Part shown: positions 7,522 to 19,909 of the stretch, piece by piece
How positions within the stretch are numbered: the stretch's first letter is position 1
Layout of the letters: every line of letters starts with the position of its first letter
IMG/VR virus record: IMGVR_UViG_2617270967_000008
Direction: 5' to 3' (one strand)
DNA: 23,006 nucleotides
Source: a virus
Taxonomy: Duplodnaviria; Heunggongvirae; Uroviricota; Caudoviricetes
The notes under the pieces: generated by a model
The model's input: the letters and a program-made list of their open reading frames with translations, nothing else
Told to the model about the DNA's origin: nothing
The model's database searches: none
Position numbers and translations under genes: made by a program

Positions 7522-7722
7522 ATGTCATCAAAGAACAGAACCCGCAGAACAACAACCCGCAACATCCGATTTCCAAACCAGATGATTGAACAAATTAACA
7601 TCGCTCTTGATCTGAAAGGTTCAGGAAACTTTTCAGCGTGGGTTATTGAAGCCTGCAGGAGAAGGCTGGCAACAGATGCAACGCATCTGCGCCCGGCCAG
7701 CATGAAAAATAACGAGAAATGA
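7522..7722 (+). CDS. Small ribbon-helix-helix-like protein, homologue of the small ORF at the lambda right end
   Basis: MSSKNRTRRTTTRNIRFPNQMIEQINIALD...SAWVIEACRRRL matches the lambda right-end ORF from memory; strand-helix-helix pattern. A Fur-box-like GATAATGATTATCATC lies upstream near 7350. Confidence 0.65.
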   Translation: MSSKNRTRRTTTRNIRFPNQMIEQINIALDLKGSGNFSAWVIEACRRRLATDATHLRPASMKNNEK

Positions 7723-7853: not shown

Positions 7854-8180
7854 TCAGGGTGCAGAAGGACTAAAGATAAACGTTTTCTTCACGCCTTTAC
7901 ACGGCCTGTCCTTCTCAAATCGCCATTTTGCCATCGCCTTTACAACCTGCTCATCAAACAAATGGTGCGGCTCTGAACGGATAAACTCAATTCGGGTGAC
8001 AGTACCATCAGCACCAATATCAAACTTCACATCAACCCGTCCCTTTATATAATTTGCCGCTGCATAGGCCGGATATTGTGGTAATGCCTTAACCAACTGT
8101 CGGGGCATATCTGTTTTATGTTGCGTACAGCCCATAACCAGAGAAGACAACAAAATAATTAACGGAAGGTTTCTTTTCAT
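7854..8180 (-). CDS. Lipoprotein with TonB C-terminal-domain-like region (moron at the bor-equivalent position)
   Basis: Signal peptide plus lipobox (LVMGC); YPAYAAANYIKGRVDVKFDIGADGTVTRIEFIRSEPHHLFDEQVVKAMAKWRFE aligns to the TonB C-terminal motif pattern. Start ambiguous (8186 or 8180). Confidence 0.65.
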   Translation of the reverse strand: MKRNLPLIILLSSLVMGCTQHKTDMPRQLVKALPQYPAYAAANYIKGRVDVKFDIGADGTVTRIEFIRSEPHHLFDEQVVKAMAKWRFEKDRPCKGVKKTFIFSPSAP

Positions 8181-8196
8181 TTTCATTCCCGGCACA

Positions 8197-8772: not shown

Positions 8773-9240
8773 CTAGTTAATACACTGAGTGCGGATATAG
8801 TCCTGCGCCCCTTCCAGTTGCTTCTGCATTGTCATCAACCGCTCTCTGAGGGTGAAATAATCCCGTTCAGCGGTGTCTGCCAGTCGGGGGCCGGTTGCAT
8901 TATCCACGCGGGCGGTGCCGGTGGCTTCACGCACGGAACCTGGACAGGTGGCGTTGATACGCAGGCTGCGGCGACCAGCGGCAACGTCAGCGCGCAGAGT
9001 TTCATTTTCAGCTCTCGCATCGGCTAACTCCTTTGTGTATTTTTCATCCAGCGCAGCAACATCACGCTGACGCTGCTGCATGTCAGTAATGGTTGTGTTT
9101 GCCAGCTCCAGCTCTCTGGCTTTTTTATCGCGCTGCGCTTTGTAGGTGATGGCGTTATCGCGGTAATGATTCAGCCCCAGACTAAGCACACCACAGGCTA
9201 CCAGCAGGACAATAATCACCACACACAGAACACGGTTCAT
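8773..9240 (-). CDS. Rz: Rz i-spanin
   Basis: [16 protein letters not shown]...[15 protein letters not shown]...QKQLEG matches lambda Rz; N-terminal TM; start at ATG 9240 (MNRVLCVV) with a GGTGGTGA RBS. Confidence 0.9.
8835..9020 (-). CDS. Rz1: Rz1 o-spanin lipoprotein, embedded in +1 frame within Rz
   Basis: [25 protein letters not shown]...[30 protein letters not shown] matches lambda Rz1 including lipobox and proline-rich region. Confidence 0.85.
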
Positions 9241-9339
9241 ATCACCACCAACGGATTGCCCAGACCAGAACAGCAATGGCCACAATACGAATGGCAAATG
9301 CCATTGCCCGAATAAGTTCAGCACTCATCTTTTTAAAGT

Positions 9340-9522
9340 TCACGATTTCAGCGCAATGACCAGTTTTGCCAGCCCATACAGTATCGGAGACACAGCGATA
9401 CCAACCGCCACCCACTTAATAGCAAAAGCCAGCGCTCTGCTGATGTCATCAGTTACTGGCGCTTTCAGTTCAAGGCCGTTTTTCATAGTCAACCTCAACA
9501 GAATTCGTTTATACTTTTCCAT
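9340..9522 (-). CDS. Small single-TM membrane protein between endolysin and Rz (function unknown)
   Basis: ATG at 9522 (MEKYKRIL...) preceded by AGGGAGA; hydrophobic FAIKWVAVGIAVSPILYGLAKLVIAL segment. Confidence 0.45.
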   Translation of the reverse strand: MEKYKRILLRLTMKNGLELKAPVTDDISRALAFAIKWVAVGIAVSPILYGLAKLVIALKS

Positions 9523-9550
9523 GTTCTCCCTTGCCTTATCCAAGGTCAGA

Positions 9551-9590
9551 AACACAAAACCCCGCTTGCAGCCAACAAACGGGGTTTTTA
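9551..9590. terminator. Hairpin with flanking T/A runs (weak, bidirectional-looking) between endolysin and the small membrane gene
   Basis: CCCCG...CGGGG stem with a 15-nt loop, TTTTT on + and UUUUGUGUU on minus. Confidence 0.35.
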
Positions 9591-9678
9591 CTTTTATTCA
9601 CTTAGTTTTTGTTAGTTCGCAGGATTTCGTGTTATCCGTCCGTGTGAGCAAACCGCATTTTTCAGCAAAATATTCTGC

Positions 9679-10212
9679 TTATCTGTCAATTCCCCAGCAC
9701 GCCAGCGCACTCTCCTGGTCGCGACGGGATACCTGACCGTAACAGTTGTTTGAGCGAATACGGCAGTCTCTGCCACCGTCCTTAATCCACCAGCGAATCG
9801 CTTCGCATGCTCCCCTGCGATCACCTGCATTAATTCGTCTGTAAAACGTCGACGGGAAACACTTACCGGGACCAATGTTGTACGGACAGAATGACGCGAT
9901 CCCCGCTTTCTGGGGTTCGGTCAGCGGCACTCTGATGTTTTTCTCCACCCACGCCAGCGCTTTATCACGCTCAATGGCGTTAACCTGGTCGCATTTTTCC
10001 TTCGACAACTTCATGCCCGGAACGACAGGTTTGCCATCCACCATGATGGCACCACGGCAGATGGTCCAGATACCCGCACCATCACGGTATGCCGTGGTGT
10101 GGTTGCCTTCTTTTTCATCCAGAAACTGGTCGAGAATTTCAGGCGCAGACGCACCAGCGGCAATCAGCGCCAGAACGGCAGCCGACAGGCCGTATCTGAT
10201 TTTTGCGTTCAT
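9679..10212 (-). CDS. SAR-type endolysin (phage lysozyme with N-terminal signal-arrest-release domain)
   Basis: N-terminal weakly hydrophobic Gly/Ala-rich segment (LSAAVLALIAAGASAPEIL) followed by a lysozyme-like catalytic region (EGNHTTAYRDGAGIWTICRG); resembles phage 21 R / K-12 prophage Rrr-type lysozymes. Confidence 0.85.
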   Translation of the reverse strand: MNAKIRYGLSAAVLALIAAGASAPEILDQFLDEKEGNHTTAYRDGAGIWTICRGAIMVDGKPVVPGMKLSKEKCDQVNAIERDKALAWVEKNIRVPLTEPQKAGIASFCPYNIGPGKCFPSTFYRRINAGDRRGACEAIRWWIKDGGRDCRIRSNNCYGQVSRRDQESALACWGIDR

Positions 10213-10337: not shown

Positions 10338-10613
10338 ATGAGTGAAGAAAATAGCAAAGAGAATACAGCACTTTTTGACAGAATTTTTACTCTTGAGTTA
10401 CAGGTCGGTTTTCTTCTCCCAAAGATAATCAAAGCAATGGATGCACTAAGTAAAAATAACGCTGTGTCAGATTACCTGATCGCCGAAATGGAACATCTAA
10501 TTAAAGAAATACCAAAGACAGTTGCTCGTGATGATAAAAGATTCCTCAAGGCTGCTGAAGATGCTCTTTCAACAGTGAAGCGCAGCTTAGATGCGCCGCG
10601 CGATCAAGAATAG
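10338..10613 (+). CDS. Hypothetical 91-aa helical protein, AT-rich, convergent with and overlapping the 3' end of the 176-aa gene
   Basis: ATG 10338 with AAGGAA 7 nt upstream; about 38% GC; overlaps 10546-10613 with the minus-strand gene. Confidence 0.5.
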   Translation: MSEENSKENTALFDRIFTLELQVGFLLPKIIKAMDALSKNNAVSDYLIAEMEHLIKEIPKTVARDDKRFLKAAEDALSTVKRSLDAPRDQE

Positions 10614-11076
10614 TTTCTTTCATTTCATCTGCTGCAAGCACCTCATTTTTTGTTGGGGTGCTTTTTTTCAATTCAGCGATATAGCACTCCAGTTTTTCAA
10701 TGCGTGATTCAATATCATCGTTTTCTGACCGCAATGCCGTCGGTGGCGTCTTCAGAGAACCAGTAATTATTCCCGGTAGTTTTCCTCTGTAGGTTATCAA
10801 CACATCCTGCGCCTCTAAAATTATGGGGCGCTTTTCCGGCAACGGACCATCCCCTTCACATAACCCGGCAGCAACATCCATGAAAAACTGCTTCGCCTGC
10901 TTTTTCGCCTCAGCTTCGTAAAACTCCAGCGTGGCATCTTCAGTACGGTCAAGACTAATCGCCACATCTGGCAACAACAGTGACGGATACCCACCAATTT
11001 CCAGTGCCACAGTAACAGTAATCTTATTCGGGTAATTATTTATCCCTTTAACAACCAGTTCGTATTTTTTCTTCAT
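10546..11076 (-). CDS. Hypothetical 176-aa soluble protein inserted between holin and endolysin
   Basis: ATG 11076 lies 4 nt after the holin stop with GGGGAGAG upstream (translational coupling); no TM or signal peptide; predicted coiled-coil C-terminus; no family recognised. Confidence 0.6.
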   Translation of the reverse strand: MKKKYELVVKGINNYPNKITVTVALEIGGYPSLLLPDVAISLDRTEDATLEFYEAEAKKQAKQFFMDVAAGLCEGDGPLPEKRPIILEAQDVLITYRGKLPGIITGSLKTPPTALRSENDDIESRIEKLECYIAELKKSTPTKNEVLAADEMKETILDRAAHLSCASLLKEHLQQP

Positions 11077-11080
11077 CGCT

Positions 11081-11296
11081 TTACTCTCCCCGCGCCGCCT
11101 TACGACGGTCCTCTCTGATTTTGAAATACAGGTTAGTCAGATATGTCAGCAGCCCAAACAGCAGACTTCCCAGTACGCCTATTGCCGCCCACTGAGACGG
11201 GGAAACCCTGTCCAGCAGCTGCAGGAACCAGTAGCCCGTCCCCACCGCTGACGTGGTGTATGACACACCTGTTGTGATTTTTTCCATCTGGTACAT
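11081..11296 (-). CDS. Class II holin/pinholin of the phage 21 S type, with dual-start motif (M1...M4)
   Basis: 71 aa, ...[50 protein letters not shown], resembles S21 pinholin and K-12 EssD-type holins; two TM segments. Confidence 0.85.
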
Positions 11297-12009: not shown

Positions 12010-13953
12010 TTACGGGTTATTCACTTCCACTGTTATACTTTCAATCAGCACCGGGTAAGTCGCATTTTTAGTGATATCGGTCACGCGCAACTTGTCTGCC
12101 GTAAACGTGCCGACCGGAGACTGCGACAGCATGAATGGTGTCCCGTCCTTACCATCAATGACCGGCGTCACCTCAATACTGTTGTTACCGGCAAAACGGA
12201 AGCCCAGCGTATGCCATTCGTTATTAAATGCGCCGAATGACCCCAGCTTCGTGTTCTGCGCCGTGTTTCCTTTGTGATACATCACGTTAAGGTCTGTGGC
12301 ATCGCTCTGTACGTAGAACGATGCCAGCAGGTTATGACCGGCATTACCTTCCAGTGTGACCCCCTGAGGCAGGGAAGAAACCGGCCAGTACAGCGCCAGT
12401 GCGTACTGATTAGCCGTAAGCGCGCCATCGAGTTTAAAACGACAACTGACAAGACCACCTTTACCCAGCAGGTCCGCACCATTACCAGCATCATGCTCAA
12501 GGTACCAGGGGGCTCTTCCTGTTTCCTTGGTCAGTTTCATTGCCTTACCCCCGCTGGCTCCGGCATCATCCACGATTTGAGCCTTGCCACCTCCGGCAGC
12601 CCAACCCTGTGGTGTCAACCGTCCTTCAGACTCAGATGCCCGGTAAGCAAATAGCGTACTCATCGTCGTGGTGTCTGCGGGTGGCGTGGACGGTTTTGAT
12701 GGTGTATCAGGTGACGGCTTCTCATCCGGTGGTGTCACGGTCTGCCCGCGCATCAGTTCAGCCGTGCGCCCTGCATGGAGCATAATAGCTGAGGCCAGAC
12801 GGTCTGAAATGACGCCCCTGCGTGCCCATGAGCTGAAATGGCTGTCACGCTGTGTCGAAACAAAACTGCCCTGGGTTCGGGATGCTGCACCGTAATACCC
12901 GACAGCCACAATATCCGGGTCTTCCGCCGGAGCATTCGTTGGCGTGCTCTGTCCATTCTCATCCGTCAGGAACGGTACAAAGAAAATATTCTGTGCTTCC
13001 CTGCCCTTGTAACCGCCATATACCGCCTCATATTTATCGGCGTTAAGATTCTTCCAGTAATACGTGGTGTCACCACAAATCCACGGCACCGAGCCAGCAC
13101 TTCCGCCAACACACTGTGCAGAATATGCAGCCATATCAGCCCTGAACTGCTGCACCATAGTGGTAAACAGGCCGCTGTGCTGCTGACTGCCGTCCGCAAG
13201 ATCATTTTCCCCCTGCATCCATACCACGGCCAGAAGCCTGTTTTTCGGGTTCTTCGACAGCGCCGCTTTTGTACGGAAGAGAAAATCCTGATACAGCGGT
13301 TTACCCACTCCCCAGCGGGCTGAATTTGCCGATGCGCCAGACGTTTCGCTGAACGTGCCGTCATTACCCACGGTTAAACCAGACCCGCCACGGCAACAGG
13401 GCACCAGAAGAATCCCGGCATTCTGCGGGATATAAGGCAGAAGTTTTTTGGCAATATGCAGCCCCTGACCGACAGTCCCGTACTGGCCCTTACTCAGGTC
13501 TGCATGAGGATGGTTAAGTGCGCTCATGTCCTGAACATCATGCAGACAGTGGTCTGCCGGAATAACGTCATTGTATGCACAGGTATCACCACCCGGCGTC
13601 ACAGTGCTGCGACGGGCCAGCTGCTTAATACGGGAGTCAGGGCGATCATAGGTCTCCGGCAGAGGAAGCCCCTCACCATAGGCCATACCGTTCGACTGCC
13701 CGGCCAGGGGAATAACGTAGTAATACTCCGGTTCAGTGGTAGCCACTCCCGGAGAGCCACCAGCCCCTGTGTCGGGCACAACCACAGGCGTGGTCACATC
13801 ACCCTCTGCGGCAATGGCCTGCATCAGTGTATAAGGCGTGATAGCCACAGGACTGCCAAACGGCTGCCAGCCTTCCTTCAGTTTTTGTGTCAGTCGCTCC
13901 GCAAGGTCTGACGGCGACGCCGCCCTGACCACGTCATAGTGTTTAAATGCCAT
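12010..13953 (-). CDS. nanS: Prophage sialate O-acetylesterase (NanS-p-like; the large ORF that follows stx in Stx phages)
   Basis: N-terminus MAFKHYDVVRAASPSDLAERLTQKLKEGWQPFGSP is the characteristic start of these esterases as I recall; about 647 aa; strong RBS AAGGGGAGGA before ATG 13953. Confidence 0.8.
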   Translation of the reverse strand: MAFKHYDVVRAASPSDLAERLTQKLKEGWQPFGSPVAITPYTLMQAIAAEGDVTTPVVVPDTGAGGSPGVATTEPEYYYVIPLAGQSNGMAYGEGLPLPETYDRPDSRIKQLARRSTVTPGGDTCAYNDVIPADHCLHDVQDMSALNHPHADLSKGQYGTVGQGLHIAKKLLPYIPQNAGILLVPCCRGGSGLTVGNDGTFSETSGASANSARWGVGKPLYQDFLFRTKAALSKNPKNRLLAVVWMQGENDLADGSQQHSGLFTTMVQQFRADMAAYSAQCVGGSAGSVPWICGDTTYYWKNLNADKYEAVYGGYKGREAQNIFFVPFLTDENGQSTPTNAPAEDPDIVAVGYYGAASRTQGSFVSTQRDSHFSSWARRGVISDRLASAIMLHAGRTAELMRGQTVTPPDEKPSPDTPSKPSTPPADTTTMSTLFAYRASESEGRLTPQGWAAGGGKAQIVDDAGASGGKAMKLTKETGRAPWYLEHDAGNGADLLGKGGLVSCRFKLDGALTANQYALALYWPVSSLPQGVTLEGNAGHNLLASFYVQSDATDLNVMYHKGNTAQNTKLGSFGAFNNEWHTLGFRFAGNNSIEVTPVIDGKDGTPFMLSQSPVGTFTADKLRVTDITKNATYPVLIESITVEVNNP

Positions 13954-14040
13954 TATTCCTCCCCTTTCCGGGATTTTCCTCAACAGTTGCGGGCCACGGT
14001 CCGGCTACACGGAGAATCAAAAGAGGAGAACCGCAGCCCG

Positions 14041-14133: not shown

Positions 14134-14165
14134 CCCGCCCGCCACTCACTGCGGGCTTTTTTTTG
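14134..14165 (+). terminator. Plus-strand hairpin followed by T8
   Basis: CCCGC-cactcact-GCGGG then TTTTTTTT on the + strand; the opposite orientation to the surrounding genes. Confidence 0.5.
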
Positions 14166-14171
14166 CCCATA

Positions 14172-14199
14172 GAAAAGCCCCTCCGGAGAGGGGCTTTTT
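14172..14199. terminator. Bidirectional rho-independent terminator
   Basis: AGCCCCTC-cgga-GAGGGGCT flanked by AAAA and TTTT. Confidence 0.65.
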
Positions 14200-14439
14200 A
14201 CAGTGGTAGTGTAGACAATTTTGCATGGTGCCGGGTGCCTCCCGGTGAGTTCAGTATCAGCACCTGAACCCGCACAGAAAGGATAAGGGTCGGTGACAAA
14301 ACACCAGTTGCTGATTGCCCCTCCGCACAGGGGGATTCACCATGCCAGTTTCTTTTAACAAACTCCCCGCAAACCAGACAACAGTCAACCGCCTGAATTG
14401 TGAGGTATTTAAAAATTTCAACGGGTAACTGATACCCTG

Positions 14440-15211: not shown

Positions 15212-15288
15212 TGGCGCGTTGTACTGGATTCGAACCAGTGACCGATTGCTTAGAAGGCAATTGCTCTGTCCGGCTGAGCTAACAACGC
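15212..15288 (-). tRNA. tRNA-Arg (anticodon UCU)
   Basis: Hand-folded cloverleaf: acceptor GCGTTGT/ACAACGC, D-arm GCTC/GAGC, anticodon loop CTTCTAA, T-arm ACTGG-TTCGAAT-CCAGT, discriminator G, encoded CCA. Confidence 0.85.
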
Positions 15289-15304
15289 AGGATACAGATA
15301 ATGA

Positions 15305-15378
15305 ACCGCCTTCGGGGATCCGAACTCCGCGCAACCAGCTTCGAAGGCTGGCGCTCTTTCCTGATGAGCTAATGGCGG
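15305..15378 (-). tRNA. tRNA-Arg-like (anticodon UCG) with non-canonical features; possibly degenerate
   Basis: Hand fold: D-arm GCTC/GAGC, anticodon arm CCAGC-CTTCGAA-GCTGG; T-loop TTCGGAT with one A-C mismatch in the T-stem; acceptor 6/7 paired, starts C1-G72, no encoded CCA. Confidence 0.5.
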
Positions 15379-15385
15379 TATGTGA

Positions 15386-15461
15386 TGGTGGCCCTTGCTG
15401 GATTTGAACCAGCGACCTGGCGATTATGAGTCGCTCGCTCTCACCACTGAGCTAAAGGGCC
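15386..15461 (-). tRNA. tRNA with anticodon CAU, resembling E. coli tRNA-Ile2 (ileX-like) rather than tRNA-Met
   Basis: Hand fold: acceptor GGCCCTT/AAGGGCC, anticodon loop CTCATAA, T-arm GCTGG-TTCAAAT-CCAGC, encoded CCA; overall resemblance to ileX as recalled. Confidence 0.8.
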
Positions 15462-19462: not shown

Positions 19463-19618
19463 TTACTCCTCAGGTTCGTAAACTGTGAAGACAGCGACCT
19501 CCGTCTGGCCGGTTCGGATTCGTACCTCGCAGAGGTCTTTCCTCGTTACCAGTGCCGTCACTATGACGGTTAAACAGATGACGATCAGGGCGATTAACAT
19601 CGCCTTTTGCTGCTTCAT
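19463..19618 (-). CDS. hokD: Hok/Gef-family type I toxin (HokD-like, 51 aa)
   Basis: MKQQKAMLIALIVICLTVIVTALVTRKDLCEVRIRTGQTEVAVFTVYEPEE is near-identical to HokD as I recall; AAGGAG RBS; an upstream in-frame ATG gives a mok-like extension. Confidence 0.85.
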   Translation of the reverse strand: MKQQKAMLIALIVICLTVIVTALVTRKDLCEVRIRTGQTEVAVFTVYEPEE

Positions 19619-19909
19619 AGCCTGCTTCTCCTTGCCTTTCGGCACGTAAGAGGCTAACCTAGATTTGCCGTTCATAGATTGAGCCTCAGATTAATGTTAA
19701 GCGTCTTGCAGGACGCGTAATGTTAACTGGGGCTTTTCTCTATCTGCCTTTTGGTATTCATGCCTGAGACAGATAGCCTCAAGCACCCGCAGCAATTCTA
19801 CTTAACTATCCTTTCCCCGCAAATCGTTTTTATCCCCAGCGACAAATCGAATACACCACCAGCGCCACCGCCATTGCGATCCCTACCGTTGTGAATGCCT
19901 CAGGCCAGG

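Follow-up and report, generated by a model that had tools for sequence, protein, structure and literature searches.

Lysis of a Gram-negative host is usually told as three steps, those of holin, endolysin and spanin. In the lambda pair S107/S105, extra N-terminal charge alters the behavior of a transmembrane domain (TMD) while the membrane is energised, and Ms6 Gp5 is a small protein with one TMD that modulates lysis beside the main holin-like protein. Classical morons, which are expressed in lysogens, have a promoter of their own on the upstream side and a terminator on the downstream side. Phage Mu has an additional small membrane protein, the "releasin" gp25 (PMC9239132), in a cassette with a signal-anchor-release (SAR) endolysin. 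Here we analyze an open reading frame (ORF) of 60 amino acids (aa) at 9340..9522 on the minus strand of a 23,006-nucleotide stretch of DNA from a virus of the Caudoviricetes (IMG/VR record IMGVR_UViG_2617270967_000008; the whole stretch is called the window below), in which it lies between the endolysin gene R and the i-spanin gene Rz. This target ORF belongs to a conserved, uncharacterised family of single-helix proteins. The family is carried on a cassette headed by a hairpin, usually in the slot that separates endolysin and spanin genes in lambdoid prophages, and the product of the target is probably an accessory lysis factor. The lysis cassette thus contains a conserved fourth gene family that has neither a name nor a Pfam family.

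The preliminary description of this DNA had claimed a single transmembrane (TM) helix and a good ribosome-binding site for the ORF, and both are confirmed on the minus strand. The long form begins at ATG 9522, with AAGGCAAGGGAGAAC on the 5' side of the ATG, and ends at TGA 9342..9340, to give a 60-aa product (MEKYKRILLRLTMKNGLELKAPVTDDISRALAFAIKWVAVGIAVSPILYGLAKLVIALKS). A GTG at 9555 would give 71 aa, and is an unlikely start because it lies within the upstream hairpin. The interval around it is more crowded than the preliminary description has it, with a hairpin, an internal start, a second small TM ORF and a nucleotide-conserved island that carries an antisense promoter-like site. The target and the parts of its cassette are given below (SD, Shine-Dalgarno sequence; piS, synonymous nucleotide diversity).

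9340..9522, minus strand: target ORF, long form ("type A"), 60 aa, recognized from sequence, SD, PHROG match, selection and helix model
9340..9486, minus strand: short form, 48 aa, from an internal ATG (M13) at 9486, with the SD GAGG 6 nt upstream
9469..9516, minus strand: nucleotide-conserved island, codons 3-18, AAGTATAAACGAATTCTGTTGAGGTTGACTATGAAAAACGGCCTTGAA, 48 nt with low piS
9556..9588, minus strand: GC-rich, terminator-like hairpin at the head of the cassette, AAAACCCCG-loop-CGGGGTTTT, with T tracts on both strands
9242..9328, minus strand: second tiny TM ORF, 28 aa, "type B" (phrog_4493), a short paralogue of the TM segment of the target
9240..9250, minus strand: 3' junction of the cassette, TGG TGG TGA t ATG, in which the RWW-stop codons are the GGUGGU SD of Rz

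A type A protein starts with a basic extension of 12 aa, followed by the motif MKNGLExxAP and a single TM helix, and ends in ...ALKS. Residues 30-58 of the target are hydrophobic (hydropathy 1.3-2.0), and AlphaFold2 predicts a single long helix for residues 23-59 (predicted local distance difference test, pLDDT, ∼90) and a low-confidence helix for residues 2-14; for a 60-aa helix, such a model adds little to the hydropathy. The TM segment has small-xxx-small spacing (A39xxxA43 and G41xxxS45), which would suit helix packing. Among PHROG profiles, the target matches phrog_1115 over its full length (E 3e-46) and phrog_4493 (E 6e-29), both of which are uncharacterised phage families, and diverged members of the family (L241, L242, L247, L250) match the same PHROGs, 1115 / 4493. 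The target, types B and C, and a 60-aa lipoprotein described below have no match in Pfam, NCBIfam or PADLOC. Nor is the target spanin-like, in that its TM segment is C-terminal, there is no lipobox, at most ∼20 residues lie outside the membrane, and no spanin PHROG or Pfam family is matched. RefSeq lists it, from other E. coli, as a hypothetical protein of 60 aa, and the annotation of the family is hypothetical throughout.

The family was sampled as 253 instances from ∼240 loci (L numbers in the text); these loci are the best 80 per scan and are skewed to close relatives, so that context counts are not frequencies. For 42 distinct type A nucleotide sequences, codons 19-60 have a piS of 0.295 and a nonsynonymous diversity (piN) of 0.061, for a ratio of 0.21 (bootstrap confidence interval 0.12-0.31), where these statistics take no account of phylogeny or recombination, and the alleles are mosaic. 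The piN/piS ratios of the other two frames over the same codons are 0.87 and 10.8, and there are 18, 6 and 36 variable columns at the first, second and third codon positions, respectively. The target ORF is a real gene under purifying selection, and the conservation in frame that the preliminary description had named as a check is what we find. An ORF on the plus strand (9356..9736, 126 aa) was considered and is an antisense shadow, as the variation by codon position fits the minus-strand frame.

The cassette has four ordered parts: a hairpin with U tracts, a leader, the small ORF with its internal start, and a 3' end that donates a ribosome-binding site. The hairpin is located 35-95 nt 5' of the ORF in every full-length member examined, with point changes in the stem in a few copies, and it is kept where the flanking genes are unrelated; the leader between hairpin and ORF (35-95 nt) carries one SD and start. 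In an alignment of 21 distinct hairpins, 93% of the cells are paired and 6 of the 13 pairs have compensatory changes. This covariation score was reached by 0 of 500 shuffles, and slid controls were lower. The hairpin folds stably on either strand (-9 to -16.5 kcal/mol), with the sense strand better in 13 of 18 variants, because U.G pairs on the sense strand correspond to A.C mismatches on the antisense strand. Promoters and terminators are called here as consensus matches only. A consensus scan of the window and a reading of the aligned leaders gave no conserved sense-strand promoter between hairpin and ORF. The sequence TATAAA was considered as such a promoter and rejected, as the final T is absent and there is neither a conserved -35 element nor a TG extension.

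At the other end of the cassette, the same 3' junction is found before a different gene in L091, where homology stops at ATGAACC, and before the endolysin gene in L241. A last ORF that ends in RWW is followed by the next gene after 1-9 nt. The cassette is co-directional with the late genes in all contexts, with the hairpin on the 5' side; there is no hairpin after the last small ORF, and a downstream terminator is present in L089 only.

In the window, the last small ORF is the 28-aa type B ORF, which is directly upstream of Rz and supplies the Rz SD with its final codons TGG TGG TGA. It is annotated as WP_032140280 in other E. coli, and four distinct alleles give a piN/piS of 0.34. The C-terminus of type A has the form ...KWVAVGIAVSPxLYGLAKLVIALKS, and that of type B the form ...RLVAVAVLIWAVRWW. 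Types A and B form a single family, with P0121 as a bridge between the two and with hybrids. In consensus, members have, in order, an optional basic extension, M[KN][ND]G[LI]ExxAP, about 8 further residues, the TM segment, and RWW or LK(S) at the end. An unrelated third small ORF with a single TM segment, type C (43-48 aa; MSDKLITLAKILCVIVGISFSLMLVAICFSTAWRVLTLSWLVG, MSDKLITL...VGISF...), occupies the same slot just upstream of Rz, either alone, after an antirepressor gene, or in tandem with type A, and C/A fusion ORFs exist (P0090). Type C is ECs_5732/ECs_1966 in Sakai, and is located as follows.

L237:2612-2758, minus strand; L238:6125-6271, plus strand; L239:2357-2488, minus strand: type C ORFs of E. 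coli O157:H7 Sakai Sp12 and Sp10, and of strain 9234

Recombinant, mosaic alleles combine types A, B and C (P0116, P0109, P0090). Together with tandem duplication of the cassette and a design that preserves expression of the downstream gene, such hybrids are what one would see of a selfish or neutral unit, in which hairpin, ORF and SD persist through non-polar insertion and the protein has no phenotype. We regard this as highly improbable, in view of the purifying selection on the protein (piN/piS 0.21) and the retention of MKNGLExxAP and the TM segment down to ∼40% identity.

The N-terminal part of the ORF differs from the rest. M13 is probably a second translation start, or even the main one. 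M13 and its SD are retained in every lineage, even where the encoded residues are changed (LRLT in some, VEAN with GGAGG in others), and the upstream SD and start are conserved as well as the internal ones. Arg10 is specified by the rare codon AGG in 40 of the 42 distinct sequences. Gene callers often choose the M13 start, as do RefSeq and the Sakai annotation (ECs_1094). The basic extension, of the form xY[KR][KR]xFx[LM]R[LI][ST]M, persists in members that are 40-50% identical, and carries a charge of +3 to +5 in most lineages; the N-tail of the short form has a charge of 0 to -3, and the C-terminal end +1 to +2.

The nucleotide-conserved island covers most of this extension and continues beyond M13. 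Its piS is 0.036, versus 0.295 downstream, which is the lowest value of any sliding window and was matched by 0 of 5000 random subsets of codons; for codons 3-12, piN/piS is ∼1.1. Island identity is 33-39 of 39 nt in 6 of the 7 lineages compared, which include other genera, and 28 of 39 nt in L089. A hairpin that sequesters the SD of M13 was considered as the main cause of the island and set aside, since the fold is weak (z of about -1 to +0.7) and is lost in type B.

A further arrangement of starts is seen in the leaders of L083, L086-L088 and L240 (Salmonella; Sakai Sp4), where an insertion of ∼30 nt turns the SD and ATG into an upstream ORF (uORF) of eight codons, encoding MCREVCSL or MGREVLSL, whose TGA stop overlaps a GTG start of the long form (CTGTGAGG). 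The overlap suggests coupling by termination and reinitiation, and the uORF of the Salmonella and Sakai variants again points to controlled initiation.

The island also coincides with a promoter-like site on the opposite strand, and two features are proposed there.

9486..9515, plus strand: sigma-70 promoter-like site TAGTCA-18-TATACT, antisense to the target, with a -10 element that is the reverse complement of the invariant AAGTATAA
9521..9595, plus strand: hypothetical cis-antisense RNA of ∼75 nt, proposed from the promoter-like site and the hairpin, and spanning the long-form SD and start

These features raise the question of a type I toxin-antitoxin-like unit, in which the target would be a toxic peptide and a constitutive cis-antisense RNA of ∼75-100 nt, running from a conserved TATACT or TATAAT to the hairpin, would mask the long-form SD. 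The scan flags the homologous antisense position in five diverged contexts, with -35 elements that differ and each match at at least 4 of 6 positions. Salmonella type A is flagged, as are type B (TGGACA-18-TATACT, 10 of 12), a tail-fibre variant (TTGGCC-16-TATACT) and the second cassette of L242 (TTCATA-16-TAAAAT). In K3N variants the antisense -10 element reads TATAAT, and the TAnnnT pattern is kept even where Tyr is replaced by Phe. The span from -35 to -10 is that of the island, the hairpin as read on the antisense strand is followed by T tracts, and the predicted RNA folds well, into two stem-loops (-20.3 kcal/mol, z -3.0). In addition, tandem cassette arrays recall the ldr and sib/ibs loci, a hok/sok locus is present in the same window, and the target is within the range of type I toxins in size and hydrophobicity (48 or 60 aa, one TM segment).

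Several observations do not fit such a unit. In most variants, as given above, the sense strand gives the more stable hairpin, and two or three contexts fail the antisense scan, with no passing site in L241 or the first L242 cassette. No Rfam family matches the site, whether at gathering scores or with E values up to 5, and a table of Hfq targets from crosslinking and analysis of cDNA (Hfq-CRAC) contains no small RNA (sRNA) at the homologous R-Rz junction of Sakai Sp4 (the homologue lies at about 1,184,727-1,184,948 of NC_002695.2). The prophage sRNAs known from the literature, AsxR, AgvB and Pas, are located upstream of the holin gene, rather than at the R-Rz junction. The island could instead serve translation, as an A/U-rich enhancer together with the SD of M13, and there is no homology to known type I toxins. 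A cis-antisense RNA layer on the cassette is possible; a complete toxin-antitoxin-like unit is a somewhat doubtful proposition, and is in any case compatible with other readings.

The location of the cassette bears most directly on its function. The late genes of the window are on the minus strand, in an order that runs from a NanS-p-like esterase gene to Nu1/terminase, and those around the target are as follows.

12010..13983, minus strand: NanS-p-like esterase; the next gene encodes a DUF826 protein
11081..11296, minus strand: S21-type class II holin (PF04971, by Pfam)
10546..11076, minus strand: DUF1327/YdfR-family protein, 176 aa, between holin and endolysin
9679..10212, minus strand: SAR-type endolysin R (PF00959, by Pfam), upstream neighbor of the target, with a SAR-like N-terminus (N-terminal hydropathy 1.82)
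8773..9240, minus strand: Rz i-spanin, 155 aa, downstream neighbor (PF03245, phrog_13)
8835..9020, minus strand: Rz1, embedded in Rz (PF06085, phrog_3198)

The true start of Rz is ATG 9240; a program-made ORF list had placed it at GTG 9324. The 438-nt interval between R and Rz has a GC content of 0.45, and each of its flanking genes one of 0.547. The lambda genes R and Rz share 4 nt, and rrrQ and rzpQ of the K-12 Qin prophage likewise overlap, and therefore the interval is extra DNA, i.e., an insertion. This agrees with the preliminary description, which saw an extra gene relative to lambda and phage 21, and also a SAR endolysin and a pinholin in the same cassette (here the PF00959 enzyme with the SAR-like N-terminus and the S21-type PF04971 holin).

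Across the sampled loci, the family is seen beside five types of endolysin, four types of holin and two spanin families. In the endolysin-spanin slot, the flanking lysis genes are those of the window (SAR PF00959 lysozyme and S21 holin), an HP1-type holin and a lysozyme (L083-85), a lambda-S-type holin and a non-SAR GH19 enzyme (L087), or a lambda-S-type holin and a phrog_873 endolysin with a phrog_214/456 spanin (L250/251); in L086, the family member follows an antirepressor gene that is inserted in this slot. The order endolysin, hairpin, family member, i-spanin occurs with both phrog_13 and phrog_214 spanins. A second large group is represented by the following copy.

L091:2649-2831, plus strand: family member in an M15-peptidase cassette of phage phiSTEC1575-Stx2k, with ∼100 IMG/VR loci

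These M15 cassettes (L091 and many others) have PF16931- and PF05449-type holins, and the family member is followed by the gene for a 60-aa lipoprotein, rather than by Rz; no recognisable spanin was found in the stretch examined. The lipoprotein is phrog_7528, with the lipobox LLVGC, and has only ATGAACC in common with Rz. It was considered as a degenerate Rz and rejected, since homology ends at ATGAACC. The GH19 endolysin of L087 and the M15 endolysin of L091 have maximum N-terminal hydropathies of 0.57 and 0.86, respectively, versus 1.8 for R of the window. In a distant GC-rich phage (L241), three hairpin-headed cassettes, one of which also holds a holin gene (phrog_920), lie between the major capsid gene and the gene for a SAR-like PF00959 endolysin. 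The tandem small-TM-ORF cassettes of this phage (L241:2923-3615) are separated by a 48-nt repeat that contains a hairpin and is present in three copies (77-100% identical).

Association with the lysis cassette survives the swap of both neighbors for non-homologous genes, and linkage alone would not explain it. The same swaps bear on the suggestion in the preliminary description that the protein could be a lysis regulator, in view of the SAR endolysin and pinholin nearby: the family is strongly associated with lysis genes, while the tie to those two partners is not supported, because the family also occurs with non-SAR endolysins (GH19, M15 and phrog_873) and with HP1- and lambda-S-type holins. 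A dedicated antiholin or SAR-release modulator is expected to track one type of holin or endolysin. A dedicated S21 antiholin or SAR-release factor is therefore unlikely, given the non-SAR GH19 and M15 endolysins, the four holin classes and the sites among tail genes; a generic membrane-level accessory lysis factor, or a small toxin, is plausible, and the insulation and dual starts of the cassette add to the appeal of the regulator and toxin readings.

Position relative to the spanin genes might instead suggest a spanin-specific partner, that is, a TMD-level chaperone for, or brake on, the i-spanin Rz that is translated just downstream. Enterobacterales cassettes place the family or type C directly 5' of the i-spanin gene, coupled to it by stop codon and SD, and do so for two spanin PHROGs. 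The L241 cassettes, by contrast, precede a holin and an endolysin, the downstream gene of the M15 cassettes encodes the lipoprotein unrelated to Rz, and there is no nearby spanin in the baseplate and tail-fibre contexts, so a role of this kind is very unlikely.

The family is narrow and varies among strains. Of 5426 complete E. coli genomes, 1043 (19%) have at least 80% of the module (9340..9600, as used for this count), and 2132 (∼39%) have some part of it; the module is found at ∼4037 places in E. coli, versus 12742 for the window-type Rz. Members occur in O157:H7 prophages, Shiga toxin (Stx)-converting phages, Salmonella and other genera. A profile search of 1.84 billion representative proteins gave 29 clusters only, none tied to a named family. 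In the GTDB species-representative genomes, a protein pattern found no member, and a degenerate DNA pattern for MKNGLExxAP gave three chance matches only.

Patchiness of this kind among related prophages would also fit a lysogenic-conversion moron, and the target could be an inner-membrane protein made in the lysogen, for example a superinfection exclusion protein that blocks DNA entry like HK97 gp15. The cassette is extra DNA of other composition between genes that are adjacent in lambda, and classic moron sites are used: after a tail-fibre gene with terminators on both flanks (L089/090), and inside a baseplate operon, between hub and wedge genes (L247-249). A third site outside lysis genes has two cassettes ahead of a portal-like gene (L242), and a small neighboring ORF there matches a PHROG labelled "moron ... 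membrane protein". An exclusion gene would not be expected to prefer the endolysin-spanin slot across non-homologous flanks, and it would need transcription in the lysogen, which the hairpin, being upstream rather than downstream, would block, with no conserved sense promoter between it and the ORF; in addition, there is no PADLOC match. We consider a lysogen-expressed moron of this type unlikely.

The reading that we prefer, at a probability of roughly 0.4, is that the target is a late-expressed, possibly dual-start, membrane-active accessory lysis protein on a moron-like cassette. The target would be one copy of a mobile unit inside phage late operons, and its protein would be made from the Q-antiterminated late transcript only; late-only expression is proposed because a hairpin with a U tract should halt RNA polymerase that is not modified by Q, and because no conserved sense promoter was found. 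The protein would insert in the inner membrane through its single 30-residue helix. There it would have an accessory role, either as a timer of the holin or antiholin kind or by helping to depolarise the membrane, and would act via the membrane or TMD-TMD contacts and not on one given holin or endolysin. The two starts would yield a long form that has the +3 to +5 extension and a short form with an N-tail of neutral or negative charge, and the long/short ratio could set activity, by the logic of S107/S105. The comparisons show that the gene is real and under selection, and establish the anatomy, distribution and preferred slot of the cassette, whereas late-only expression, use of both starts, topology, membrane activity and any effect on lysis are inferred.

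Several points weigh against this reading. Lambda, 21 and Qin lyse without the family, and the target is thus dispensable. It has no homology to holin, antiholin, spanin or releasin families in Pfam, NCBIfam, PHROG or PADLOC, where no gp25 sequence was compared. Three architectures (baseplate, tail-fibre and portal-adjacent) are not lysis cassettes. As for the two forms, the extension is acidic (-2) in the tail-fibre variants, and its translation is unproven, because piN/piS is ∼1 among close type A alleles.

A more elaborate version of the accessory lysis protein would make the family a new class of lysis regulator, with long and short single-TMD forms whose ratio is set by a cis-antisense sRNA that runs from within the ORF to the hairpin. 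Such a portable "lysis timer" could enter between any late genes without polar effects, because of its 5' insulator and 3' SD. This combination is quite unlikely. If lysis timing is tuned by the family, this would matter for burst size and for when phage and Shiga toxin are released; if the cassette is portable, with insulation and an SD hand-off, it would be a new route for small genes through phage operons.

A literature search found no publication on this family. What is already known are the sequences, as hypothetical proteins in databases, and the existence of accessory small membrane proteins and morons in phage late operons. The design of the cassette (a covarying hairpin at the 5' end, dual starts, the nucleotide-conserved island, an SD donated at the 3' end, and tandem arrays) appears to be undescribed, as does the recurrent placement in the endolysin-spanin slot.

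Other features of the window are as follows. The DUF1327/YdfR-family protein has relatives that range from 114 aa to ∼213 aa. On the opposite strand between its gene and the endolysin gene is a 91-aa ORF (phrog_18136; 10338..10613, plus strand), followed by a plus-strand terminator-like hairpin at 10636..10663; the pair looks like an antiparallel moron in the lysis cassette. On the 3' side of Rz/Rz1 in late-gene order is the gene for a TonB_C-domain (PF03544) lipoprotein of 113 aa (7854..8195, minus strand), with a convergent DUF3950/YnfO-like ORF as neighbor (7522..7722, plus strand), and then Nu1/terminase; this lipoprotein gene, downstream of Rz, has the position of bor in lambda. Rfam matches at gathering scores, all on the minus strand, are the sRNA STnc100 (14165..14374), three tRNAs in a cluster like those of Stx phages (15215..15461), and sok of hok/sok (19613..19788).

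Compared with type I loci (hok/sok, ldr/rdl, ibs/sib and zorO/orzO), the cassette has in common a hydrophobic peptide of at most 60 aa, tandem arrays and layered control of translation, and the possible cis-antisense RNA would overlap an upstream translation-initiation region much as Sok does on mok. It differs in that the peptide has no toxin homology, the RNA is hypothetical, the hairpin favors the sense strand, and the unit is co-directional within a late operon rather than standalone. Mu gp25, compared by description, is similarly an extra small membrane protein beside a SAR endolysin, as in the window; the family, in contrast, has no fixed link to SAR endolysins, since copies are found beside GH19, M15 and phrog_873 enzymes, and co-occurrence with them is not obligate, as L087 and L091 have GH19 and M15 enzymes without an N-terminal hydrophobic domain.

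Lambdoid morons (Juhala et al. 2000) such as HK97 gp15 are alike in being extra DNA between adjacent genes, with distinct composition, transcription signals and a small inner-membrane product. The cassette has the extra DNA and the distinct GC content, and lacks a promoter of its own and a downstream terminator: the hairpin that resembles a terminator stands on the upstream side, the scan gave no sense promoter, and the 3' end gives an SD to the next gene.

In layout, the family is like S105/S107 of lambda and S68/S71 of phage 21, which are also small membrane proteins of lysis cassettes with two in-frame starts, each with an SD, and a longer form that is more basic, as the long form of most lineages here would be; in both cases, RNA structure near the starts could set the ratio of the forms. 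The family has one TMD, versus two or three in those proteins, and an extension of 12-20 residues, versus 2-3. It also has no holin Pfam homology, and its proposed use of both starts is read from sequence. Finally, it coexists with a separate bona fide holin of several classes, and is not paired with any one of them, as S21-type, HP1-type, lambda-S-type and PF16931/PF05449 holins are all seen.

In function, possible counterparts are mycobacteriophage LysF1b and D29 LysA2b, which are described as small single-TMD modulators of lysis beside the main holin-like protein. Those regulators act in a host with another envelope and have experimental support, and the likeness is one of description, with no homology expected. 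D29 LysA2b is reported to be encoded among tail genes, off the lysis cassette, which parallels the baseplate and tail-fibre copies of the family. By this analogy, there is precedent both for lysis regulators with a single TMD and, in mycobacteriophage D29, for one that is located among tail genes.

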